Source: Candidatus Hydrogenedentota bacterium (GTDB taxonomy: Bacteria > Hydrogenedentota > Hydrogenedentia > Hydrogenedentales > JAEUWI01). From it: a stretch of DNA of 64,000 nucleotides. The notes below the pieces were generated by a model. It was not told the origin of the DNA, ran no database searches, and worked only from the letters and a program-made list of their open reading frames with translations. Below, piece by piece: positions 7,173 through 63,878 of this stretch. Location: positions 25,111-89,110 of the forward strand of contig JAXMOL010000031.1 of NCBI GenBank assembly GCA_034669905.1, written 5' to 3'. The translations under genes and the position numbers were made by a program. Position 1 is the first letter of the stretch. Every line of letters begins with the position of its first letter.

Positions 7173-8489
7173 TTACCCTAAGGGACCGTATTGGGATTCG
7201 GCAAATTCAAGCAGCCCACAGGCCGCCAGTTTTTCAAGAGGAACGAGGCAAGTCACTTGGACCACCCCCGGGTGACGTCCGATTTCGATACCGCCGTTGA
7301 TGGTCGCGCGGTTTTTCACTTCCGCCACCGACATATCGAGCAGTGCGGCCGCCCGTTCAAGTCCGTTGTCCGTAGCGGCGTTCAGGTCCGCGCCAGTGCC
7401 GACCACGGAAATAGGTGCCGTCTCTTCGATGGCATCAAGTCCATAGCTCTTGGCCAGTGCCAACGCCTTTGCACGTTCCCGGGCGGTGAAGGGCTTGGCG
7501 AGAAAGGGCAAATCTTCGGCGACCGGGAAGAGCACGGGGCCATCAATCCCCAGGCCTTTCAGCACATGAACCTGGAGAGTCACCGTGCCCGACACGTCGC
7601 AGGTATGGCCCGCAATTTCGCCGTCACCCTGAAGGGCGTGCATATCCCCCATATAGATGCCACCGCCCGGCACTTTCACCGGACAAATCAGGATAGCGCC
7701 CGCACGAACGGCGTCGATATCCATGTGCCCATCCGTGCGGTGAACAAGTTGTTCTTCCGTAATGGCCAGGTCGTGGGGCGCGCCAATGAGAAACTGGCCG
7801 AAGTCCCCGGCGTTATGGCTGTCGGGAAAGGGAATGGAGGGCGTCGTGCCGAGTTGCCCCATGAAAGGACGGAGCCGTGCCATCATCCCCACCAGGTCGT
7901 GTTGGGCCAGGGTGAGCACCGAGTTCTGCACGGAATTCACCGGCATGGCTGCGTAGCGTTTGGCATCCCGCGCAATCTTCTCGGCAGCATCTTCCGTCAG
8001 GGTCACGCCCACTTCGTGGTTTTCATCAAAGGCGATGGTGTAGCCGTTGCCGATGGTGAAGGGCGTTGTTTCCGCGCCGCAGTGGGCGCATTGAATCGCG
8101 CCACAGCCCGTGCCCACCAGTTTCGTTTCGGGGTTGAGGGTGCCACATTCGGGACAGCGGGGTGCCACGAAGGGGTCGCCGTCAAAGCGGCCCGCCATGG
8201 CCACATCGGTGCCGGAAGCGGTCGCCATGGACGTGACGGTGATGTCCCGGATAACAATCGCGATGGCATCCCCCACTTCGGCCCCTTCGACCGCCACGGG
8301 AATGGTCACTTCGTGACCGCCACGGAGGCAGGGCGTCAGCATGGGCCCCCAGCATCCCGGTGCCGTGTTGGCCACAATATGGCCTCCATCCCGCACCGGC
8401 CCCAACATGGGTTTCGCCGGGTCCAGGACGCCGTCGGTGTATTGATCGACGAGCACGGTTTCGCGGGCAGTCTCAGGAGGTGTGGTCAT
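7173..8489 (-). CDS. Acetamidase/formamidase family protein
   Basis: GGHEVTIPVAVEGAEVGD, DGHMD and GDMHALQGDGEI motifs; inserted CPEC/CAHC zinc-ribbon-like pair. Confidence 0.85.
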   Translation of the reverse strand: MTTPPETARETVLVDQYTDGVLDPAKPMLGPVRDGGHIVANTAPGCWGPMLTPCLRGGHEVTIPVAVEGAEVGDAIAIVIRDITVTSMATASGTDVAMAGRFDGDPFVAPRCPECGTLNPETKLVGTGCGAIQCAHCGAETTPFTIGNGYTIAFDENHEVGVTLTEDAAEKIARDAKRYAAMPVNSVQNSVLTLAQHDLVGMMARLRPFMGQLGTTPSIPFPDSHNAGDFGQFLIGAPHDLAITEEQLVHRTDGHMDIDAVRAGAILICPVKVPGGGIYMGDMHALQGDGEIAGHTCDVSGTVTLQVHVLKGLGIDGPVLFPVAEDLPFLAKPFTARERAKALALAKSYGLDAIEETAPISVVGTGADLNAATDNGLERAAALLDMSVAEVKNRATINGGIEIGRHPGVVQVTCLVPLEKLAACGLLEFAESQYGPLG

Positions 8490-8610
8490 GATAATGCGCC
8501 TTTATCTGGTTAACACCCAAGTTGTTATAACCAATTATAGGAGCCAGGTAGCCGGAAATCAACGGATTAGAATCGAAGCACAAAGTCGGGCCAGCGTGTG
8601 GAGGATCTAT

Positions 8611-8935
8611 TTAACCTCAAAGAACGCAGAAAGCACAAAAAAGTGCAGGCCTCACGACAAGATGAAATTATCGGGGACAAGAACTGTTGAACCACGAATA
8701 GACACGAATTTACACGAATTGAACGAAGACCTTGAGCCTCAACGCAGGCAAGGAGTGCCAACCGCTGTCGCTACCACACATAGTTAGACGGACTACCGAA
8801 GTCGCCGCCGTCACCCACGGCATGGGCAAGGTGCTCGCGTACAGTCATCCTTTGTGCTCTTTGCGTTCTTTGTGGTTAGAAAATTCTTTCCAACGATATT
8901 CGTTCGTGTTAATTCGTGTCCATTCGTGGTTCAAA
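8611..8935. repeat. Two interleaved pairs of 9-bp-periodic inverted repeats (type usually seen flanking GxxExxY genes)
   Basis: A (8611, TTAACCTCAAAGAACGCAGAAAGCACAAA) pairs with A' (8851-8879); B (8687, TTGAACCACGAATAGACACGAATTTACACGAA) pairs with B' (8898-8934). Confidence 0.75.
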
Positions 8936-8937
8936 TC

Positions 8938-11937
8938 CTAGTCCGACACCACGTCCTTCGCCAACAGCCCCGGGGAGCGGGTCACGATCGTTAATTCGTG
9001 CTGCCCGGTAAGGCCACTGAGGTCGATGATACCCGTTGCTGAATTAAAGGGCACGTCTACCCCGGCCGCCGTCACGGACACCATCTGAAAGGGTTCCGGC
9101 AGGCGAATCTTGAGCTTCGTTTCCTCCATGACGTCCCGCGTGGGCAAGTCCACCGAAACATCCACACGCTGCTCGGCCAGCCGGGAAGCGATGCGGTAGC
9201 TCACAGGACCAAAGCAGGTCGGCGCGGCATCCACCACGATTTCCTTGCCGTGCTCCAACCATTCCCGCGGGGTCGCGTGGGCCAGGTAAAGACTCTCGGG
9301 CAAACCGGTTTCGTGATTGAAAGAATCGCGGACCAGCATGAGGCGCAGATTCAAAAGCAACGCACAGTTGTTGGCACTCGTCGGGCCCCCATAGGTGGAG
9401 CGATAATATTCACCGGGACGCTCGCCCAGCGTACTCCCTTCGCCCGTAACGAAGGTATTGCGTGTCATGCCGTGGGCCAGCTTGCCGTAGAAGGTCAAGA
9501 CCTGCCGCTCGGCCATGTCCTGGGCCGCAATCATCCGCAGGTAAGCCGGCAGATACACATTGTCCACCCCCGTGGTGTAATAGCCCGGCAGGCCATCGCG
9601 CCGAAAGGAGCCAATGGGCGTCGGGTAATAATTGAAGCGCAACATTCCCAGGAAGGTCGCACCGTGGCCGTGCATGTAGTCGGCGATCCGGCCCAACTCT
9701 GGGCCGTCCATGGGCCAATAGCCCGTGGCAAAGGCATAGGGAATAACCAGGTTCCAGTAGCTTCCGATGCGGGTTTCGGTAATCGACGTGTAGGGCAACT
9801 CGCCGGTGTAGAGGGCACGGGGCACGAAGAGGGACCCATCTTTCATCTCAGTGACGGCCTCGGTCATCCCTTTGTCGATGGCGGCCTTGAGCTGGTCCGC
9901 GAGGGGACGATACCGGTCATACAGGTCCGTGCGGCCAATCGCTTTCCACACTTCCGCCATATCACGGATGCCCTGCCACCCGACGGTCTGGTGGAAAATG
10001 TAGTGGGCCACTTCCGGGATGTCGCCACACTGGCGCTGCTTTGTGAGGAGGCCGTATTCATCTTCGGCCATCTGCTGCTTGAAGATTTCGCAAATCTCGA
10101 CGAAGGCCTCGGTGTGCTTCGCAATGAAATCGGCGTCACGGGTGAGGAAATAGTAGTGCGCGCCGTGGGTGAGCTTTTCGCCCCGCTCCCAATTAATGTA
10201 GTAGCCTTCGCCCTTGGTCATGTCGAGCAGGGCACCCAGCCCATCGCGATAGGCCTGGGGATGACCAAACTCGCCGAGGGTTTGCACCGCGTCACTGCTC
10301 TCCGGTTGGTAGAAGCTGTCGTGATAGACCACGGAGCCCAGGCTATAGCGCCAGCGCAGGATGAGGTTCTGCATGAGCAGGTTCCGCTGCACATCCATGA
10401 CGTGGGCTTCGGGCACCTGGAAACGCATCACGGGGGCCAATTCTTTTGTCCAGTAAGCCACCATGGATTCCCGGGCCGATTCATAGCCTGCTGCGGAAAC
10501 TTGAATCCCGTCATTGAGCGGCGCTTCCGGCGACCAACACACATAGAGCGTGTGGGTGCCCGGCGCTACGGTCCAGGCAATGCCGTCCTCCGATTTATCG
10601 ACGCGCTGAAAGCCGTCGGACACGTCAACACGGCAGCGACTCCCGGCGTCATCCCCGAAATCGAGATACAATTCGGCGGTATCATTCTCTTCGAGTACCG
10701 AAACTTCCATGCGCACAAAGGCCAATACGCCCTCGTGGCCCGGAACTTCGGCGGCGAAACTGGTCTGCTGATAGCGATTTCCGCTGCGATCCGTGTAGCC
10801 CGTTTCCAATATGGGCAGGTAGTTCTCCGCGAGGTAAGGGCCGTTCAAGCGCTCCAGCACACTCCCGTAAACCTCTTTGTTTGATCCCACACGCCACGCA
10901 AGGAAATCTTCACTCTGATAGACATTCGCCGCAATACGGCTGCCATCGGCCAGGGGCACCAGGTAAGGCGGCTCACCCCCACTCTTGCCGAAGAGGAGAT
11001 TGTGCACCCCCATTTCCGTATAGGCGTGTCCCGTGGAAAAAAAGAGGGGGTGGAGTATGTCCTTCATGTTTTCATAGGTGGCACCCCCCTGGGCAATAAG
11101 GGCCTCGCCCCAGACATCCCGATTTGATTCCAGGGCTTCATTGAGCCGTGTCGCATAGGGGGTCAGCCCACCAGCTTCCCCGCCCTGGGGGTAGGCCGAC
11201 ACCTCAGCCTCAAACGACGCGGCAAGCGTGGCGACATCCAGGGCCGCGTCGTAGAGCCGTACTTCGCTGATGTAGCCTTCATAGCAATAGGCTTCCGTCT
11301 TGGGGAGATTCCCATAGGCTCCCAGAAGCAGGGGCGTGTCGTAGGCATCAATGGCCCCCGTAGCAGGAACCGCCTCCCCCGCCGGACCGCCGTTGCAATA
11401 GAGACGCAGGGCCGCGCCATCATAGGTCGCTGTCGCGCGGTTCCACCCTGATTCCAACGCAACATCCTTTACTACCAGGGAGACGAGCTTTCCGCCCAGA
11501 CTCACGTAAAAGGCCAGGGTTCTGGGATACTCCACGTCATCGGAAAGAAAAAGTCCATACTGATACATGGCTCCCTCGTGGGACGGAGCCGATTTCACAA
11601 CGAGGGGTTTCTGATTGAAGACCTGGCCGTCGGGCAACTTAAACCAAACCGTCAGGGACAGGTGCTCAGGGTTCAGCACCGGCGCGTTGGGGACTTCTAC
11701 ATAGCTGTCTTTTCCCCCAAACCACGCACTGGGATGGTCGATGAGATCTTCCACCCGCCAGAGGATATCCACACCATGAAGGCCCCCGGCCAACTCGGGT
11801 GTCACCTTGTTGGGCAGTCTGTCCCCTACTTCCGCCGTCGCCGCCCAATGGGCCACGGGGTCCGTCGCCAGCGCCCCCACCGCAAACATCATTGCCCCGA
11901 TAAATACCAGGCCCTTGAAACACGTCACCAAATACAC
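8938..11937 (-). CDS. Secreted LamG/ConA-like domain + putative (alpha/alpha)6 glycoside hydrolase
   Basis: LamG motifs WNRATATYDG, LRLYCNG, ISEVRLYD; helical catalytic region; C-terminal ATPREWL...DAAPTCFGPVSY beta-sandwich. GTG at 11937 has a GAGGGAG RBS. Confidence 0.7.
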   Translation of the reverse strand: MYLVTCFKGLVFIGAMMFAVGALATDPVAHWAATAEVGDRLPNKVTPELAGGLHGVDILWRVEDLIDHPSAWFGGKDSYVEVPNAPVLNPEHLSLTVWFKLPDGQVFNQKPLVVKSAPSHEGAMYQYGLFLSDDVEYPRTLAFYVSLGGKLVSLVVKDVALESGWNRATATYDGAALRLYCNGGPAGEAVPATGAIDAYDTPLLLGAYGNLPKTEAYCYEGYISEVRLYDAALDVATLAASFEAEVSAYPQGGEAGGLTPYATRLNEALESNRDVWGEALIAQGGATYENMKDILHPLFFSTGHAYTEMGVHNLLFGKSGGEPPYLVPLADGSRIAANVYQSEDFLAWRVGSNKEVYGSVLERLNGPYLAENYLPILETGYTDRSGNRYQQTSFAAEVPGHEGVLAFVRMEVSVLEENDTAELYLDFGDDAGSRCRVDVSDGFQRVDKSEDGIAWTVAPGTHTLYVCWSPEAPLNDGIQVSAAGYESARESMVAYWTKELAPVMRFQVPEAHVMDVQRNLLMQNLILRWRYSLGSVVYHDSFYQPESSDAVQTLGEFGHPQAYRDGLGALLDMTKGEGYYINWERGEKLTHGAHYYFLTRDADFIAKHTEAFVEICEIFKQQMAEDEYGLLTKQRQCGDIPEVAHYIFHQTVGWQGIRDMAEVWKAIGRTDLYDRYRPLADQLKAAIDKGMTEAVTEMKDGSLFVPRALYTGELPYTSITETRIGSYWNLVIPYAFATGYWPMDGPELGRIADYMHGHGATFLGMLRFNYYPTPIGSFRRDGLPGYYTTGVDNVYLPAYLRMIAAQDMAERQVLTFYGKLAHGMTRNTFVTGEGSTLGERPGEYYRSTYGGPTSANNCALLLNLRLMLVRDSFNHETGLPESLYLAHATPREWLEHGKEIVVDAAPTCFGPVSYRIASRLAEQRVDVSVDLPTRDVMEETKLKIRLPEPFQMVSVTAAGVDVPFNSATGIIDLSGLTGQHELTIVTRSPGLLAKDVVSD

Positions 11938-55632: not shown

Positions 55633-57177
55633 TCATTCCCCATCCCCACCGGCCCCGAGACAACGATGGAGCCGCGACAAGGAAAAAATCGTAAGGCCAA
55701 GGAATAACGCATAGAGCACCCCGATTTTCGCGGGCCAGATAGACGCCGCACCCACGAAGCCTATGAACGTCATCAAATCGTACATACGCTCTGGGGACAG
55801 GGGGCTGTTTGGGGCAGAGGATGTGGACGCGCGCTTTAAGGCCCTGTGTATGGACCACAGGGTCACGGTGACCAACACAAACGCCACAGGAGCGAAGAGG
55901 ACAATGCGTCCGGCGGGCCAGGCGTACTGGTCAATAGCGGCGTCGTCGTGGATTCCGAGCACCACCACCGCGCGGGAGCTGACACCATGAAAAAGAAGGA
56001 AAACCAGCAGGAAAATACTGTAGCGCAGCGAAACAATTCTCACGCGCTCCCAATGACGACCGGACTCGAAGTCCCTGGAATCCCCCCAGGCCAGCCACCC
56101 CATCGCAAGGAAAAAGCCCGTGGCGAGGGCGAGCCCGGTCCAGAAGAAGTACTCGTAGCCCGCTGCAAAAATAAGTACAAAGCCCGCGATCCCCAGGCAC
56201 CATGTCGGACGAGTCGTAGCCGGTGTCCTGTCGTGCGGCCCGTCCTTCCCTTCGTCTGCCTTGTCGTGTCCCCGAAGGCACAGGTAAAGCATGAGGGCGT
56301 AGAGCAGACCGAGGTTGAATCCCGCGTGGAGCTCCCATAGCTTCCACCAGTCCACCGCGGCCGGCGCGTAGGCATAGCCATGACACCACGCTGCCGAGAT
56401 GGCGAATCCGGGACCAAAGCCTCCGCCTATCACCGCACCCGCCGTCAGCGTCCTGCGGTCGCGCCGGAAAGCGGCAGTAATCATTGCCGCGCCCCACCAC
56501 ACGAGTACGGCGAAATTCTGGGTGTTGGTATACACCGTACGGCCGAGGTGTCGGTCCAGGTCGCCTTGGTAAATGCCCAGGTCCGCCTTCGGAAATACCA
56601 GGCTTGGACACCAGCGGACAAAAAACGCGCCGAGCCATTCGACGAGGCCAGTGCCGAAGAGCGCGCTTCCAAGATTAAAAATGAGTGCGAGGAGCACCGC
56701 CATAAAGACCACACGCTCCACCCACCGACCAGTTGAAACCGGGCCGCCCAGTGCCCAACCAAGCACGATGCCGCCCGGGGCAGCCCAGCCAATACCGCAG
56801 ATAGTGAACCACAGGTACCCGACCCAGGGTGCAATGGGAATCGTCCCGTCCCCCAGCTCAAACCGTCCCTGAATCCAGTTAACATACTGCCCGTATCCCA
56901 ACTCACCGCCCAGCGCCAGGCCGAGACCCAGCCAAAGCACGATACTCCGGGCATCAATACCCCTCCGATAACACAGGTAATACCACAGCAGGCCCCAGGT
57001 CAGCCCCGGAACGACCGTACCATCGATACCACCCCAACCGGAAGTGCCGCGAATGGCCCAGGTAATCGCACCAACACTGCCGAATAGAAGAATAGTCAGA
57101 CACAGCTCATAAAACACGTGGGAACGCTTGTTGTCGCGGTATCGGATGTAGCGCCCACGATCGGTGACAACCAACAT
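55633..57177 (-). CDS. Hypothetical polytopic membrane protein
   Basis: 514 aa with many Gly/Trp-rich hydrophobic segments (WAIRG, GGELGYGQY, WWKLWE); start uncertain. Confidence 0.75.
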   Translation of the reverse strand: MLVVTDRGRYIRYRDNKRSHVFYELCLTILLFGSVGAITWAIRGTSGWGGIDGTVVPGLTWGLLWYYLCYRRGIDARSIVLWLGLGLALGGELGYGQYVNWIQGRFELGDGTIPIAPWVGYLWFTICGIGWAAPGGIVLGWALGGPVSTGRWVERVVFMAVLLALIFNLGSALFGTGLVEWLGAFFVRWCPSLVFPKADLGIYQGDLDRHLGRTVYTNTQNFAVLVWWGAAMITAAFRRDRRTLTAGAVIGGGFGPGFAISAAWCHGYAYAPAAVDWWKLWELHAGFNLGLLYALMLYLCLRGHDKADEGKDGPHDRTPATTRPTWCLGIAGFVLIFAAGYEYFFWTGLALATGFFLAMGWLAWGDSRDFESGRHWERVRIVSLRYSIFLLVFLLFHGVSSRAVVVLGIHDDAAIDQYAWPAGRIVLFAPVAFVLVTVTLWSIHRALKRASTSSAPNSPLSPERMYDLMTFIGFVGAASIWPAKIGVLYALFLGLTIFSLSRLHRCLGAGGDGE

Positions 57178-57741: not shown

Positions 57742-58920
57742 TCATTCCTCGGTATTTCTGAATACTACGTTAGAAACCCCACCATCGACCTCCCCCACCC
57801 GTAGCGCTGGTGACACGGTCCCCGCGGATATATCTACGATGCTGACGTGACTCGGCCCACGAACACCATTGTCAAAGACCATTGCCGCGAAGCGCCCGTC
57901 CGGTGACATGTGCCCTGCCTGAAACCTTGGACTCCTGCCGCCATAGGTCCGAGCCCCGACCAACTTCTTGAACGCTTTTCCGGTATCATCATAAGCGACT
58001 TCAACCTCGCTTTCCGTCAGCAATTCAGTGAACACGACGGAAATCTTCTTGCCCAACGTTCCAGCCGCGTCGTACACGTGAATTGTCTCCGTACCGGGGT
58101 CAAAGGAGCACACTGGACTGTCCCGCTCACAGCCCGGCAGAAACATACCGCCCAATTCCCGGCGCACCTGGTCACCCGCTGTCAATTTTGTCAGGTCCGT
58201 AGATATCGGGACACCTTCTTCGTTACGATTCGTTCCTACAGCGAGCAGACTGCCGCCCTGCAAGTACAGACGCTCTGGTGCACCCGAAGAAACTTCAGCA
58301 AACGTGGTATCTTCCTCTGAAACCGTCCCAAAGCGCAAAGCTCCGCCCGTAGGCATGGGGTACCGCACGATCGAACTCCCCCTCGCCACACGCAAAGCGG
58401 ACTCATCCGGGGTAAAAGCCACGGCATAGACTGACCCGAGTTGACCTCGGTAAGGCAATTCCCCTACCACTTCAAGTGAATCTGAATTCAATACGAAGCC
58501 CGCTGTATTTTCCCCTCCCACCGAAAACACATACAAGCGTCGTCCTGTGGGAGAAAAGAAGGCCGGTGCTGCGAAATACGCTACGTCCCGCCCCGGAACC
58601 CGTCGTCTCTCCAACGTTTTCGTTTCCAGGTTGAAGCTCACTATCTGAGGCCCTATGAAGAGATAGCACACCGGCTTGTCGGGCCGCATCGCTATCATCG
58701 CTGTTTCGTAGGGACCGACCGCTCTCGAAAACTGCACACACGGCACCAAAGCAACATCGTCAGCCCCCGTAAAGGATATCTTGTAGAGCGTATGCACCCC
58801 GTCCGCGTCGGATCCAATATACGCCTCCATCGCGATGCTCAGTTGGCTGACAAAAAGCCCACAACAGAGCGCCAGCCTCACAATCATTACTTTTCTAATT
58901 CGCGCAGGCCCTTGTGGCAT
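57742..58920 (-). CDS. Hypothetical exported beta-propeller (YncE-like) protein
   Basis: SPTGRRLYV, FTPDESALRV, MSPDGRFA propeller-like turns; AGAAAGGGA RBS; lower GC than its flanks. Confidence 0.65.
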   Translation of the reverse strand: MPQGPARIRKVMIVRLALCCGLFVSQLSIAMEAYIGSDADGVHTLYKISFTGADDVALVPCVQFSRAVGPYETAMIAMRPDKPVCYLFIGPQIVSFNLETKTLERRRVPGRDVAYFAAPAFFSPTGRRLYVFSVGGENTAGFVLNSDSLEVVGELPYRGQLGSVYAVAFTPDESALRVARGSSIVRYPMPTGGALRFGTVSEEDTTFAEVSSGAPERLYLQGGSLLAVGTNRNEEGVPISTDLTKLTAGDQVRRELGGMFLPGCERDSPVCSFDPGTETIHVYDAAGTLGKKISVVFTELLTESEVEVAYDDTGKAFKKLVGARTYGGRSPRFQAGHMSPDGRFAAMVFDNGVRGPSHVSIVDISAGTVSPALRVGEVDGGVSNVVFRNTEE

Positions 58921-58971
58921 GACTTGTCCCTTTCTCGTTATTACCGACCTTCCGTGCCCCTTATCTGAGGA

Positions 58972-59092
58972 CCCGGCCCACACTAGTGGGACGGTATCGC
59001 GTCCATACACCCTACGTAATCCAAGTCCGCGTCCCGCCAGCCCCCACAATATAACCGGTATGGAAGCCCCATCCCCTCCTCAGAGCCCACCG
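58972..59092. repeat. Bipartite direct repeat, copy 2
   Basis: Same two blocks as 57498-57690 with a shorter spacer. Confidence 0.8.
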
Positions 59093-59219: not shown

Positions 59220-60920
59220 TCACCCACCCAAACCCTGCGCGGTCTGCACCAAATCATAAAACTCGGCACGGTAACCCTGGCGGTCTTTATGCAGCCCCGG
59301 GCCTGCCCACGCCCGCACCCCGTCCCACGTCGTGCCGCCACGATGTGGGGATTGACGCAGGAGCATGCCATAGCCCGCGACGGCGCTCACAAAACGAAAG
59401 TCCGGCGTGCTCTCGACGAAGGGCCGCACGGGTCCTTCATAGGGAAACGAGAGGCGGGTACTCGTGTCGCTCTCCGGCTGCTTGTAGCGTAACTTCACGA
59501 AAAAGAGTTCGTCGGCGAAGTCGCTTTGGGGCGGCTCGATGGTGATACCTTCCGGTTGATAGCGCAGGGTATCCACCTCATGGACGCCCACGGGGACCAG
59601 CTCATAGAGGGCGGTCACGGTGTGCCCTGCACCAATTTCCCCGGCATCGATGCGGTCGTTGTTGAAATCTTCCGGGGCCAGGCGCCGGTTTTCATAGCCC
59701 ACCAGGCGGTAGGAGGCAATCTTCGCAGGATTAAACTCCACCTGAATCTTTACATCCTTCGCGATGGTCTGGAGTGTGCCTGAGAGTTGTTCCACCAACA
59801 CCTTGCGGCCCTCCCGCAGACTGTCGATATAGGCATAGGCCCCATTGCCCTTGTCGGCCAGCATCTCCAGGGTGCTGTCGTTGAGATTGCCCCGGCCAAA
59901 TCCCATGACCGTGAGGAAGACCCCGGCGTCTCGCTTGCTTTCGATCAGGTTAAGCAAGTCGCCCTGATCGGTGACGCCCACGTTAAAGTCCCCATCGGTC
60001 GCCAGCAAGACCCGGTTGATGCCCCCTTCGATGAAGCCTTCCTGGGCAAGTTGATAGGCCCGTTGAATGCCCGCGCCCCCATTGGTCGAGCCCCCACTCC
60101 GCAGTTGATCCAGGGCCGCCCGAATCCGCACCTTCCGGTCGCCCCGGGTCGTAGACAAAGCCACTCCGGTCGCCCCGGCATAGACCACCATGGCGATACG
60201 GTCCTTCGGGCCCAGCTGTTCCGCCAGCAGCCGCAGGGATTGCTGCACGAGGGGCAACTTATCCGGGGCATTCATAGAGCCCGATACGTCAATCAGAAAA
60301 ACGAGGTTGGCGGGGGGACGGTCCCCCAGGCGCACCTCTTTGCCCTTGATGCCAATGCGCGCGAGGTAGTGCTCCGTTTTCCAGGGACAGGTGGCCACTT
60401 CCAGGTGGGTGGCAAAGGGGGTGTCATCCGTCGGTCCGGGATAGTCATAGTTGAAGTAATTAATCAACTCCTCCACCCGCACGGCATCCTGGGGTGGCCG
60501 CTGTCCATCCCGCAGAAAGCGGCGCACGTTGGCGTAAGACGCCGTATCCACGTCGATGGAAAAGGTGGAGAGGGGCGCTTCGGTGACCGCGTTGAAGCCA
60601 TTCTCCACAATGGCAGAGTAACGCTCGCGGTTTTCGGCAGGCACCACGACGCGCACCCGACTGGGTGTAGGCATAGGCGCAGGTGCCGGGGAAACAACCA
60701 TCGGCATGGGCGGCGCCTCGGGCACGGCGCGATCCGCAGCGGGCGCGGGATTCGGACTTGATTCGCAGCCGACTATCATCACCGGCGAAGACCTGGACGG
60801 CTCCTCCCGTGCCAACGGCTTCTGCCGACTCGTATTGCAGCCCCATAGGGCGGTGCTCAGCAAGAGGAGAGTGGCGCAACAGCGCCCATACGAATAGACA
60901 CACGGGTGGCGTTTGGACAT
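59220..60920 (-). CDS. YfbK-family vWA lipoprotein (vWF_A N-term + VWA + DUF3520)
   Basis: Lipobox LWGC, PLSTFSIDVDTASYANVRRFL, LIDVSGSM, LATDGDFNVG, IAKDVKIQVEFNP, DAGEIGAGHTVTALYE. Confidence 0.92.
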   Translation of the reverse strand: MSKRHPCVYSYGRCCATLLLLSTALWGCNTSRQKPLAREEPSRSSPVMIVGCESSPNPAPAADRAVPEAPPMPMVVSPAPAPMPTPSRVRVVVPAENRERYSAIVENGFNAVTEAPLSTFSIDVDTASYANVRRFLRDGQRPPQDAVRVEELINYFNYDYPGPTDDTPFATHLEVATCPWKTEHYLARIGIKGKEVRLGDRPPANLVFLIDVSGSMNAPDKLPLVQQSLRLLAEQLGPKDRIAMVVYAGATGVALSTTRGDRKVRIRAALDQLRSGGSTNGGAGIQRAYQLAQEGFIEGGINRVLLATDGDFNVGVTDQGDLLNLIESKRDAGVFLTVMGFGRGNLNDSTLEMLADKGNGAYAYIDSLREGRKVLVEQLSGTLQTIAKDVKIQVEFNPAKIASYRLVGYENRRLAPEDFNNDRIDAGEIGAGHTVTALYELVPVGVHEVDTLRYQPEGITIEPPQSDFADELFFVKLRYKQPESDTSTRLSFPYEGPVRPFVESTPDFRFVSAVAGYGMLLRQSPHRGGTTWDGVRAWAGPGLHKDRQGYRAEFYDLVQTAQGLGG

Positions 60921-61214
60921 AAGATTACCCCAGTTTGGTTGAAGATTCGAAGCCTGCGAAAAGACCAGCACACGCCCGAATCCGCCAACTCCACACGACG
61001 CCGGGCGCCTCTGTTTAGTGTATGCAAGCGCAGGTAGAAAAGTTCCATCCGGGTCGTGGGCAGTGAATATTTCCTGCCGCCGAATGGTATATAGACCGGG
61101 CGTTCTTCGGGCATTCGCCTGTTGGGTTCCGGTTAGGGAATGACTGCCGGACATGCTACACTAGACGCGCAACTTTGGACGGGCCCAAGGGCCCTCGCAG
61201 GAGGATTAGAGCAT

Positions 61215-62048
61215 ATGTTACGGGCATTCGGACGTTGGATGAAATCAATCGGCTACTTCTTCTCGGGCAATATGGACGCCTCCCGACGCAATCTCGACAG
61301 CAACCCCCATGTCATGGCCGCGCGCTATGATGATATCGTGCGCGATAAGACCCGTCGCTTCCATGAATACAAGCAGGCGGTTGCCGGCCTCATCGCCCAG
61401 CAGGAACTGAAAATCCAGAAGGCAAAGACCCTCACCGAGGAAGTCCGTCGTCTCGAGTCCCTCAAGGCGGGTGCCCTGGCCAAAGCCAAGAAAAAAGTCG
61501 AAGAACTCAAGGGACAGAACGTCCCCCAGGACCAGATTCGCAATAACGACGAGTACATGAAATGTCTCTCGGCTTACAACGATTTCACCTCCACCCTCAC
61601 CGAGAAGACCGAGCACCTCGACGAGTTGGATGGCGACATCACGGAATACGGCGACCGCATCGAAGAGCACAAGGTGCAGATGCGCGGCCTCATGCGGGAG
61701 ATTGACAAGCTCCGCGAAGAATCCAAAGAAGCCGTGGCCGATGTTATCTCCGCCAAAGAAGAGAAAGAAATTGCGGACGCCTTGGCGGGGCTCTCCCAGG
61801 ATGGCAGCGACTCCGAACTTCAGGAACTCCGCAAGATGCGCACCGAGATGAAGGCCGAAGCCCGCATCTCCAAGGAACTCTCGGGCACCAACACCAAGGT
61901 GCAGGAGGAAGAATTCCTCGCCTATGCCCGCCAATCAGAACACAGCGACGAGTTCGACGCCCTCATCGGTCTGGCCGAGTCCGCCGAAAGCAGCGCACCG
62001 GTCGCCGAAAACCAAGAAGCCGAGCGGCTCCCCGGTCTGCCGGAGTAG
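61215..62048 (+). CDS. PspA/IM30 (ESCRT-III superfamily)-like coiled-coil protein
   Basis: N-terminal amphipathic helix MLRAFGRWMKSIGYFFSG, NP turn, long heptad helices (KQAVAGLIAQ...), A-A-ARI..EL segment, acidic C-terminal helix EFDALIGL; GGAGG RBS. Family is inferred from the architecture. Confidence 0.65.
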   Translation: MLRAFGRWMKSIGYFFSGNMDASRRNLDSNPHVMAARYDDIVRDKTRRFHEYKQAVAGLIAQQELKIQKAKTLTEEVRRLESLKAGALAKAKKKVEELKGQNVPQDQIRNNDEYMKCLSAYNDFTSTLTEKTEHLDELDGDITEYGDRIEEHKVQMRGLMREIDKLREESKEAVADVISAKEEKEIADALAGLSQDGSDSELQELRKMRTEMKAEARISKELSGTNTKVQEEEFLAYARQSEHSDEFDALIGLAESAESSAPVAENQEAERLPGLPE

Positions 62049-62063
62049 GCCCCGGCCGTGACT

Positions 62064-63878
62064 ATGGACGCACCGTCGTACGAATTCCTGCGCCACGCGG
62101 GACGGCTCCTCAATTCGGGCCAGTCCCGCTCGATTACCCTCACCGGTAATATCGACGACTTATTTCACGGCGGCGAACGCAACGATACCTATATGCCCCT
62201 GGTGGATTTCCTCTTGGGGCATTGGTCTATCCCCCATCATATCGTGCTGGTCTATGAACTGAACGGGCCCTTGCGCTTCCTCCACGAAGCCGACCGAGAT
62301 AAACTCCGGACCGCCTGGCAGACCTGGCGCACGGGGGTCGACCCCGATGACCGTGCCATCAAGCGCATGCTTTCGCCCAAGGCCCTCGACGCGCAGGAGG
62401 CCCTCTACCACCGCGACTTTGATCACCAACTGCAGCAATCCATTGGCCAACCCACGGTGGCACTGGAGTTTTTGCGCCAGTTGTGCCTCTGTTCCCGCAG
62501 CACACTGAATGGCGCCCCCATACTGAAAGAAAACCTGATTATCCTCGTCGAGGCGGCCGATCTTATCGTGCCCCCCGGCGAAGTGACCCAACTCTCCGAT
62601 CGGGACCGCCACCGCCTCAACATCTGTTACGATTGGTTTTCCGATCCCGGCTTTGTAAATGGCAACGATTCGGTCGTCCTCATCGCCGAATCGCGCAGCC
62701 AGCTGAATCCCCGCATTGCCCGCCTCCCCCACTTGCTCGACGTACCCGTGTCTGCGCCCGACGAAGCACGACGGTTTCACTTTATCCAGTGGTACCGTGC
62801 CCAGCTCAACGCGGAACAGGCCCTCGCCGTATGGGATACGGACGAACGCCTGGCCCAGGCCACCGCTGGCCTGAGCATTCACGCCCTCATGCAGTTGCTC
62901 AAGGGTGCCGTCCATCAGCAGCGCCCCCTCACCCAGTCCATGGTGCTGGAGAAGGTGGCGGAGCACATCGCCAGCCAACTCGGCGAAGACATGGTGGAAT
63001 TCAAGCGCCCCGAGCACACCCTGGACGACGTGGTGGGCTTCACCCACCTGAAAGAATTTCTCCGCACCGAATTCATGCCCCGCGTGGCCGCCGAAGGGGA
63101 TGATGCCCTGCCCGGTGCTGCCGTGGGTGGAGCCATCGGCAGCGGCAAGACCTTTGTCTTCGAAGCCGTCGCCGCCGAACTCGACATGGTGGTCCTCGTG
63201 CTGAAGAATATCCGCAGCCAATGGTATGGCCAGACCGATGTCCTCTTCGAGCGACTCCGCCGTGTTCTGGAGGCCCTCTCCAAGGTGCTCATCTTCGTCG
63301 ATGAAGCGGACACCCAGTTTGGCGGTGTCGGTGCCGATGAACACGCCACCGAGCGACGGCTTACGGGCAAAATTCAGGCCATGATGTCCGACACCCGCCT
63401 CCGCGGACAGGTCACGTGGCTCCTCATGACGGCCCGTATCCACCTCCTCTCTCCCGACATCCGAAGACCAGGACGCGTCGGCGATCTCATCATCCCCGTA
63501 CTCGATCCCGAAGGGGAAGACCGCGAGGCTTTCGTGCGCTGGATGGTCGCCCCCGTACTCGGCGACGACGTCTCCGAAGAGAACCTCACCGCCCTCATGA
63601 CCGCCACCGAAGGATTCTCCGCCGCCAACTTCGCCTCGCTCCGAAGCGAACTCAAGGCCAAACACCGCCTCTCCGGCCCCTTGGATCACGCCCAGGTAAC
63701 GGCGGTCATGCATGATCACCTCCCCCCACCCATCCAGGATACCCGCCGCTACCAGACCCTCCAGGCCCTGGTGAACTGCACCCGACGGAGCCTCCTCCCC
63801 GATCCCAACGCCACCGAAGAGGAACGGGCCGCCTGGACCCAGGAAATCCGCGCCCTCGAAGCCCGCGGCATCCGCTGA
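62064..63878 (+). CDS. Classical-clade AAA+ ATPase with a degenerate N-terminal AAA domain
   Basis: Walker A GAIGSGKT, pore loop SQWYGQT, Walker B IFVDEAD, SRH DIRRPGR; N-terminal LTGNIDD and ILVEAAD relics. Alternative GTG start at 62058. Confidence 0.88.
   Translation: MDAPSYEFLRHAGRLLNSGQSRSITLTGNIDDLFHGGERNDTYMPLVDFLLGHWSIPHHIVLVYELNGPLRFLHEADRDKLRTAWQTWRTGVDPDDRAIKRMLSPKALDAQEALYHRDFDHQLQQSIGQPTVALEFLRQLCLCSRSTLNGAPILKENLIILVEAADLIVPPGEVTQLSDRDRHRLNICYDWFSDPGFVNGNDSVVLIAESRSQLNPRIARLPHLLDVPVSAPDEARRFHFIQWYRAQLNAEQALAVWDTDERLAQATAGLSIHALMQLLKGAVHQQRPLTQSMVLEKVAEHIASQLGEDMVEFKRPEHTLDDVVGFTHLKEFLRTEFMPRVAAEGDDALPGAAVGGAIGSGKTFVFEAVAAELDMVVLVLKNIRSQWYGQTDVLFERLRRVLEALSKVLIFVDEADTQFGGVGADEHATERRLTGKIQAMMSDTRLRGQVTWLLMTARIHLLSPDIRRPGRVGDLIIPVLDPEGEDREAFVRWMVAPVLGDDVSEENLTALMTATEGFSAANFASLRSELKAKHRLSGPLDHAQVTAVMHDHLPPPIQDTRRYQTLQALVNCTRRSLLPDPNATEEERAAWTQEIRALEARGIR

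Follow-up and report, generated by a model that had tools for sequence, protein, structure and literature searches.

A PspA/Vipp1-like gene paired with a gene for a predicted Cdc48-like tandem AAA ATPase in a Candidatus Hydrogenedentota genome

The two genes and their products

Near the end of a contig from a Candidatus Hydrogenedentota bacterium lies a two-gene unit that joins a protein of probable PspA/Vipp1 ancestry to a predicted tandem AAA ATPase. The window, by which we mean the whole stretch of 64,000 nucleotides that was analysed (G000:C31:25111-89110), ends together with the contig at C31:89110, 122 bases past the second gene, and positions without a prefix refer to it. Gene 1 (61215..62048, plus strand; ATG at 61215, TAG at 62046-62048) was read from its open reading frame (ORF) and translation as a divergent PspA/Vipp1-like protein of 277 aa. 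The same methionine opens 34/34 aligned homologues, and a Shine-Dalgarno-like AGGAGG (61199..61204, plus strand, from reading of the sequence) is placed 10 nt 5' of the ATG. Gene 2 (62064..63878, plus strand) encodes a tandem classical AAA ATPase of 604 aa, as judged from the ORF, the alignment of homologues, Pfam and NCBIfam, an AlphaFold2 (AF2) model and Foldseek. The frame is open from a GTG at 62058, and the probable start is the ATG at 62064, because this is where the homologues start, which are 602-605 aa long and include a 97%-identical one of 604 aa. With this start the genes are separated by the 15-nt gap that a first-pass annotation of the DNA, made from the letters alone, had reported for a two-gene unit.

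The product of gene 1 begins with an amphipathic helix (alpha0, residues 1-17; 61215..61265, plus strand) that is a likely membrane anchor. The hydrophobic moment of the N-terminal 16 residues is 0.69, compared with a mean of 0.28 for shuffled sequences, and was reached by 0/2000 shuffles; R7 and W8 in this helix are invariant in a 34-sequence alignment. A long helical hairpin follows (residues 31-196; 61305..61802, plus strand), for which AF2 predicts helices 31-100 and 112-196 with a predicted local distance difference test score (pLDDT) mostly >90. The complete AF2 model (mean pLDDT 74) consists of the short N-terminal helix, the hairpin, further helices and a disordered tail. In the C-terminal part a conserved helix comes first, then an acidic linker that varies, and last an end that is fixed. 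The helix, acidic and conserved among homologues, reads EEEFLAY...EFDALIGL (residues 231-253; 61905..61973, plus strand), and E231, F234, E246, F247, L250, G252 and L253 are invariant in the 34 sequences. The end is the tripeptide L-P-E (62037..62045, plus strand), which its conservation in homologues marks as a candidate docking motif: LPE terminates 34/34 close homologues, and [LIVM]PE, or the same plus one residue, terminates 36/75 diverse representatives, in which the tripeptide is found elsewhere only 5 times. Measured against what we take to be the consensus of the MIT-interacting motif (MIM), the tail EFDALIGL ... LPE is not a recognised MIM. The family is large, with 828 proteins at E <= 1e-3 in a word-indexed search; the best 120 listed are 53-98% identical across phyla, and clustering at 50% leaves 555 representatives, 216 of them at E <= 1e-30. 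Some homologues carry the annotation "phage shock protein A" or "PspA/IM30 family protein". Across phyla, the products of gene 1 and gene 2 are both 55-64% identical.

Gene 1 is very probably a divergent member of the PspA/Vipp1 superfamily and appears closer to Vipp1-like sequences. In support, A3, a profile built from 75 diverse representatives that share 27-59% identity with gene 1, was searched against 177,635 PDB sequences. Eight Vipp1/PspA sequences came out on top (E 1.9e-7 to 5e-7), and the best matches consist of two collinear stretches, query 44-94 and 129-249, that include the region aligned to GLG...ELAG of Vipp1. The best unrelated coiled coil in this search, a coiled-coil chimera, reached E 2.8e-5 and was thus about 100-fold worse. 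The same profile scores the Pfam-positive PspA of a paralogous operon, described below, with 12.8-24.2 bits, compared with <=2.6 bits for shuffled and <=-1.0 bits for reversed sequences. The Pfam model PspA_IM30 matches 21/34 close homologues at E <= 0.01, all below the cut-off and with a best value of 4e-6, and 12/75 diverse representatives at E <= 1e-3. Clusters nearest to gene 1 in the ESM Atlas are named PspA/IM30.

Other results weigh against this assignment. On gene 1 itself, PspA_IM30 (PF04012) scores E 0.005 and 16.9 bits, below the cut-off of 33.9. In the PDB, a narrow profile of 34 sequences (A1) matched short coiled coils only and not PspA, and hhalign gave it a probability of <=4% against the 30 canonical PspAs of the phylum and the 6 PspAs of the paralogous operon, in alignments that are shallow (effective number of sequences, Neff, 1.5-2.4). 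Profile A3 also gave no signal over shuffled or reversed sequences with the canonical PspAs of the phylum (maximum 6.5 bits, shuffled 11.3). A structural comparison had been suggested as a check, and it went both ways. Foldseek with the gene 1 model lists Vipp1 (6zvr, E 2.2e-3) as first match, amid coiled coils of Smc5/6 and PI3K, but VIA-align (48,161 chains) gives Vipp1, Snf7 and PspA (Z 10.6-10.8) a lower rank than the hairpins of Smc and dynein (Z up to 13.0). VIA-align does not discriminate for gene 1, because helical hairpins of many unrelated families score alike. The same genome encodes a canonical PspA on another contig (G000:C2:70435-71082, L082; PF04012 149.9 bits), hence gene 1 is a second, divergent paralogue and not the sole PspA of the cell. 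A canonical PspA is present in 41/61 sampled genomes of the phylum.

Gene 2 is described here with residue numbers counted from the GTG at 62058. All its features lie on the plus strand. Its N-terminal half (D1, 62082..63047) is an AAA-like module without Walker A, recognised by a motif scan and by the Foldseek alignment to D1-D2 of p97/Cdc48. The C-terminal half holds a classical AAA module (D2, 63090..63677, Pfam AAA PF00004) in which a motif search locates the intact Walker A GAIGSGKT (residues 358-365; 63129-63152), the pore loop SQWYGQ (387-392; 63216-63233), the Walker B FVDEAD (413-418; 63294-63311), TAR at the sensor-1 position (458-460; 63429-63437) and the arginine finger RRPGR (469-473; 63462-63476). 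Pfam sees one AAA domain (PF00004, E 1.5e-13, residues 358-475). A single G....GK[ST] motif, in D2, is present in 35/35 aligned homologues, with none before residue 353, and GxxGxGKT, FVDEAD, SQW[YF]GQ and RRPGR are invariant in the alignment (A2). The AF2 model (pLDDT 86, predicted template modelling score 0.80) aligns in Foldseek to the tandem proteins p97/VCP, Cdc48, Rix7, NVL and Pex1/6 over 517-690 columns (E ~1e-16), and it is because of this alignment that we regard the N-terminal half as an AAA-like module. A profile of gene 2 has VAT, Cdc48, p97 and AFG2 as nearest PDB sequences (E 1e-26 to 1e-17). In the AF2 model D1 begins at about residue 9, which leaves no space for an N-domain ahead of it. 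Pfam gave no match to MIT or Vps4_C at E <= 0.1, and the NCBIfam models are far below their cut-offs, with 51.6 bits against 802.65 for CDC48 (TIGR01243), 36.4 against 650 for CdvC (NF041006), and PAN similarly distant. Judged by sequence and model, gene 2 is a Cdc48-like tandem (type II) AAA protein, neither of the Vps4 family nor a canonical Cdc48, with a D1 predicted to be nucleotide-dead and a D2 predicted to be active, and it is predicted to work like a classical-clade unfoldase.

The first-pass annotation had read these proteins in much the same way. Its PspA/ESCRT-III-like gene 1 is borne out by the A3 search, and the N-terminal amphipathic helix, the hairpin and the acidic C-terminal helix were recovered with the moment of 0.69, the AF2 helices and residues 231-253. 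For gene 2, the dead N-terminal AAA domain, the C-terminal domain with QWYG and RRPGR, the TAR sequence and the lack of MIT were all found again by Walker A scan, Foldseek and Pfam. Its description as a Vps4-like ATPase stood in part only, since the classical AAA motifs and the aromatic pore loop are there, but membership of the Vps4 family is ruled out by the tandem D1-D2, by the missing MIT and by the CdvC score, and the architecture is Cdc48-like.

Some further observations concern gene 2. Past the AAA lid it has a C-terminal extension (residues 553-606; 63714-63875) that is nearly invariant across phyla, TRRYQTLQALVNCTRRSLLP ... W593 ... E601 G604. A phage collection contained no match to gene 2 at E <= 1e-20. 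On the plasmid pSC2 of Paenibacillus polymyxa (L118, NC_014628.2 168091-179356) a relative that is 23.9% identical over residues 161-581 lies among small hypothetical genes.

Linkage of the pair and its genomic setting

Relatives of gene 2 were detected in 444 stretches of a contig scan, and the best 80 loci were studied. A gene 1 homologue is located upstream on the same strand in 58/80, either directly adjacent with a gap of 10-219 nt (13 loci) or at a distance of 1.3-3.7 kb (45 loci). In 15/80 no gene 1 was seen within the <4.5 kb of upstream sequence that precedes a contig or locus end, and 7/80 have the full 6 kb upstream and no gene 1 there even by a hidden Markov model of the family. 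Whole-genome searches for five of these seven loci recovered a strong gene 1 homologue elsewhere in 5/5 cases (E 1e-108 to 1e-115). Among 121 genomes of the phylum Hydrogenedentota, gene 1 occurs in 26, gene 2 in 26, both in 25 and neither in 94, hence both in 25/27 genomes that have either; these are related genomes and the counts are not independent. The exceptions are G112, a fragmented genome of 84% completeness in which gene 1 is split at contig ends, and G004, with gene 2 only 2.1 kb away from where its contig stops. Pairing of the two genes is far beyond chance and they are co-inherited, which bears out the conservation of the neighbourhood that had been put forward as a test.

Within the genus, seven genomes have both genes whole and free of stops (gene 1 74-97%, gene 2 73-97% identity), and in an eighth, G062, gene 1 is divided over two contig ends. 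One single-contig genome of the genus has the pair adjacent at 3421851-3422678 and 3422694-3424502. The closest reference genomes are Candidatus Hydrogenedentota metagenome-assembled genomes, with 97% identity in L002, and the window's own genome contains no second copy of gene 1 or gene 2. Contigs assembled from RNA libraries span the junction of the two genes in 3 runs from 2 studies, covering 61582-62199, 61383-62183 and 61921-62169; they are 90-97% identical and hence come from relatives. They give a weak hint of co-transcription, as an assembled contig is no proof of a single transcript and DNA may have been carried over into the libraries.

The direct adjacency seen in the window is the less common arrangement. 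Three genes usually separate the pair in the 45 long loci, and they encode a 360-aa protein, which is conserved and has no Pfam match, a BPD_transp_1 permease and an ATP-binding cassette (ABC) ATPase; the ABC genes are missing between the pair in 13/58 loci. The unit in the window is thus a reduced version of an operon, common in other phyla, that has five genes and includes an ABC importer. No orthologue of the long-form permease or of its downstream Kdo-like genes was found in the window's genome; the 360-aa protein has one weak partial match there (25-28% identity, E 1e-7), and matches to the ABC ATPase are generic (<=40% identity). On a FastTree phylogeny of 78 ATPases, comprising the window and 77 loci after 3 were left out for partial matches, the distribution of the compact form requires at least 5 changes, and the window's ATPase belongs to a clade of 6, all of them compact, that has 100% support. 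Because the pair persists while the transporter comes and goes, we regard it as the core of the system.

Genes downstream of the ATPase vary among the long-form loci. L034 has two genes of the Kdo/WaaP-like kinase fold directly past it (7828-8835 and 8930-9814), and L061 a gene for a 346-aa protein without Pfam match (7807-8847) that recurs after the ATPase in 8/80 loci; neither type has a counterpart in the window's genome. In one planctomycete with an unlinked gene 1, this gene has smc upstream and a 716-aa gene downstream, which offers no functional lead. The ATPases of L029, labelled as a Bathyarchaeia archaeon, and of L018, labelled Bifidobacteriaceae, group with Nitrospiraceae- and Verrucomicrobiota-labelled loci, and the misfit of these labels to the tree possibly reflects a binning error or gene transfer.

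A paralogous operon of six genes occurs in other genomes of the phylum (L112-L117; G046:C4, G056:C17, G005:C44, G028:C101, G040:C404 and G044:C18), and G056 holds both systems. Its first gene, in the same position as gene 1, encodes a 263-aa PspA that passes the Pfam threshold (49.1 bits), and it is followed by genes for a 597-aa NMT1-type binding protein with an OmpA domain, a permease, an ABC ATPase, a 297-aa coiled-coil protein and a tandem AAA protein. The latter shares 24-27% identity with gene 2 in a match that starts at residue 20 and thus includes D1 (E 2.7e-23 to 3.9e-8); this match was seen in 3/6 loci, the remaining fetched stretches being possibly too short. The PspAs of this operon, six closely related sequences, end in another shared motif. 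The operon fits the architecture printed for OGG56892.1 in Table S3 of the work of Ravi et al. (PMC11237479).

The immediate surroundings of the pair vary between genomes. A YfbK-type vWA protein (vWF_A, VWA and YfbK_C by Pfam) is encoded at 59220-61154 on the minus strand, divergent from gene 1, and is found beside the pair in only 2/80 related loci, L002 and L006. A likely lipobox, LWGC, follows an internal methionine of this protein, and its true start is probably near 60920. Two more minus-strand ORFs lie further upstream, one of 435 aa (57742-59049) and one of 514 aa with the appearance of a multi-pass membrane protein (55633-57177); both are without a Pfam match at E <= 0.1, and no counterparts were found in related loci. 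The first-pass annotation had noted a divergent vWA lipoprotein and the absence of adjacent pspBC or pspF genes; the vWA protein is probably a lipoprotein by its lipobox, and none of these three neighbours matches PspB/C or PspF. That annotation had also placed an extended -10 element near 61154. The letters are indeed there, with TGCTACACT at 61154..61162 on the plus strand as a putative extended -10, but a sigma-70 scan made no promoter call at this place. No terminator was called on the plus strand after gene 2 in a scan up to the contig end, and in two close relatives whose contigs extend further, the long ORFs that come next after the ATPase are on the opposite strand.

Possible function of the pair and alternative explanations

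The idea of such a pairing is not new, as a prediction from comparative genomics has been in print since 2024. In mSystems, Ravi et al. (PMC11237479) described PspA beside an "inactive AAA + AAA" protein, noted that longer operons can include an ABC ATPase, a permease and a PBPB-OmpA protein, proposed a link to solute transport and suggested an ATP-dependent membrane remodelling likened to Snf7 and VPS4. A 2025 review holds that an ATPase like Vps4 "appears absent in bacteria", that regulation of PspA polymers must work otherwise, and that PspA controls the AAA+ protein PspF (PMC7619361). According to Makarova et al. 2024 (PMC10936438), ESCRT systems with vps4 occur in archaea and eukaryotes only, and an archaeal ATPase, Vps4-like and carrying a VAT-like N domain, is found beside a weak PspA homologue. 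A full-text search of the literature, covering part of it, returned no bench test of a bacterial tandem AAA protein dedicated to PspA.

We propose, in keeping with the polymer recycling suggested in the first-pass annotation, that the ATPase grips the conserved C-terminal tail of its partner, a coat protein, and uses ATP to pull subunits out of a membrane-bound polymer, and we give this reading an even chance of being right. Gene 1 would use its amphipathic N-terminal helix to attach to the cytoplasmic membrane on its inner face, and would polymerise as PspA and Vipp1 do. Gene 2 would form a hexamer in which the D2 pore loops, SQW[YF]G, thread the tail of gene 1 with its EFDALIGL helix, acidic linker and LPE end, and the ring of dead D1 modules might act as a docking platform that replaces the MIT domain. 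The polymer would thereby be disassembled or remodelled at the expense of ATP, in analogy to the action of Vps4 on ESCRT-III, with a Cdc48-like tandem AAA as the motor. A bolder version, in which the pair is a minimal and self-sufficient bacterial counterpart of ESCRT-III/Vps4, has the LPE handle standing in for the MIM and dead D1 for MIT, a Cdc48-derived motor recruited independently of archaeal Vps4, and ATP-driven membrane repair or scission as its task. This wider claim is tentative, and we hold it to be more doubtful than credible.

Several observations count against a motor that recycles its PspA-like partner, and some of them would suit a different division of labour. The classical sensor-1 asparagine is not conserved in gene 2 (TAR). 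Gene 1 is absent within 6 kb in 7/65 loci that have enough flank. Four distant ATPase matches (24-25% identity) sit on plasmids of Paenibacillus and Brevibacillus, and no annotated PspA was found near the relative on pSC2, in the single region inspected. Precedent also exists for PspA regulating an AAA+ protein rather than being its substrate, namely the relation of PspA to PspF as outlined in the review (PMC7619361). The main rival builds on this: the PspA-like protein may be a regulator or adaptor that controls the ATPase or recruits it to stressed membrane, and the ATPase would then unfold or extract other clients, for example damaged membrane proteins. The unlinked loci and the plasmid relatives would fit this role, as would the fact that Cdc48-like tandem AAAs, the closest solved relatives of gene 2, are general unfoldases. 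We nevertheless think it unlikely, given that the two genes co-occur almost obligately in the phylum and in all five unlinked cases that were followed, that the conserved flexible tail with its fixed tripeptide resembles a threading handle, and that the two-gene form retains no other conserved partner. 

The long form raises another possibility, that the pair assembles or gates an ABC importer and that the two-gene form is a remnant with reduced or changed function. The 360-aa protein, permease and ABC ATPase that stand between the pair in 45/58 loci, and the link to solute transport proposed by Ravi et al. (PMC11237479), speak for such a coupling. A mere remnant is hard to reconcile with a compact form that arose at least five times on the ATPase tree and is intact and conserved in seven genomes of the genus, and the window's genome has no orthologous permease and only the one weak partial match to the 360-aa protein; we therefore judge a transport-coupled role decidedly improbable. 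Least probable of all, and in our view very unlikely, is that gene 1 is a generic coiled coil unrelated to PspA, whose similarity is compositional, and that the AAA ATPase has an unrelated helical partner. The sub-threshold Pfam score, the rank of Smc and the dynein stalk above Vipp1 in VIA-align, the coiled-coil chimera found at E 2.8e-5 with the same A3 profile and the silence of A3 towards the canonical PspAs of the phylum would all agree with it. Yet the eight Vipp1/PspA sequences head the PDB search by 100-fold in two collinear stretches that include GLG...ELAG, A3 separates the paralogous-operon PspA from shuffled and reversed sequences, and it is this Pfam-positive paralogue that occupies the same first operon position.

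Should the ATPase indeed disassemble the product of gene 1, bacteria too would possess a nucleotide-driven way to recycle polymers of the ESCRT-III type, and it would be derived from a different AAA lineage. The two-gene form lacks the transporter genes, and both of its proteins are conserved across phyla, so that a reconstitution would be simplest with this version. As the most concrete lead, the tail with its conserved LPE offers a defined target for mutation.

Comparison with known systems

The closest published parallel is the class described by Ravi et al. (PMC11237479), whose named examples were compared by their printed architecture. Shared are a PspA-superfamily gene in an operon with a two-AAA protein whose first AAA is inactive, and a long form extended by genes for ABC ATPase, permease and binding protein, comparable to the long form of the window's system in 45/58 loci. 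Kinship with the ATPases of the named examples is possible, in that ATPases from operons of the OGG56892.1-type architecture are 24-27% identical to gene 2. The differences are that the gene 1 subfamily falls under the Pfam PspA cut-off, that the order here is PspA and then AAA, without the GntR, membrane 'Snf7' or PBPB-OmpA genes of the printed examples, and that the 360-aa middle gene of the long form is without a Pfam match.

Compared with ESCRT-III and Vps4/CdvC, the pair likewise joins a helical-hairpin protein, predicted to bind membrane and to polymerise, to a classical-clade AAA protein; the latter has a W-[YF]-G pore loop and the former a conserved C-terminal tail. Gene 2, in contrast, has no MIT domain, is a tandem and not a single AAA cassette, and remains far from the CdvC model (36.4 against 650 bits). 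Cdc48, p97 and VAT share the D1-D2 tandem and are the best structural and sequence matches of gene 2, but gene 2 lacks their N-terminal substrate-recognition domain, its D1 has no Walker A, and its CDC48 score is 51.6 against 802.65.

Similarity of gene 1 to Vipp1/IM30 and PspA lies in the collinear profile match and in the order of an amphipathic N-terminal helix, the hairpin and later helices. It differs in that its hairpin tip is longer by about 25 residues (query 94-129, corresponding to Vipp1 84-94) and in the long tail that ends in LPE, and its genome has a separate canonical PspA. The PspA-PspF system also ties a PspA-family protein functionally to an AAA+ protein. PspF, however, belongs to the NtrC-type enhancer-binding proteins and has a DNA-binding domain, as stated by Ravi et al. 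(PMC11237479), whereas gene 2 has no such domain and is a classical-clade tandem AAA protein encoded at a locus without pspBC genes.

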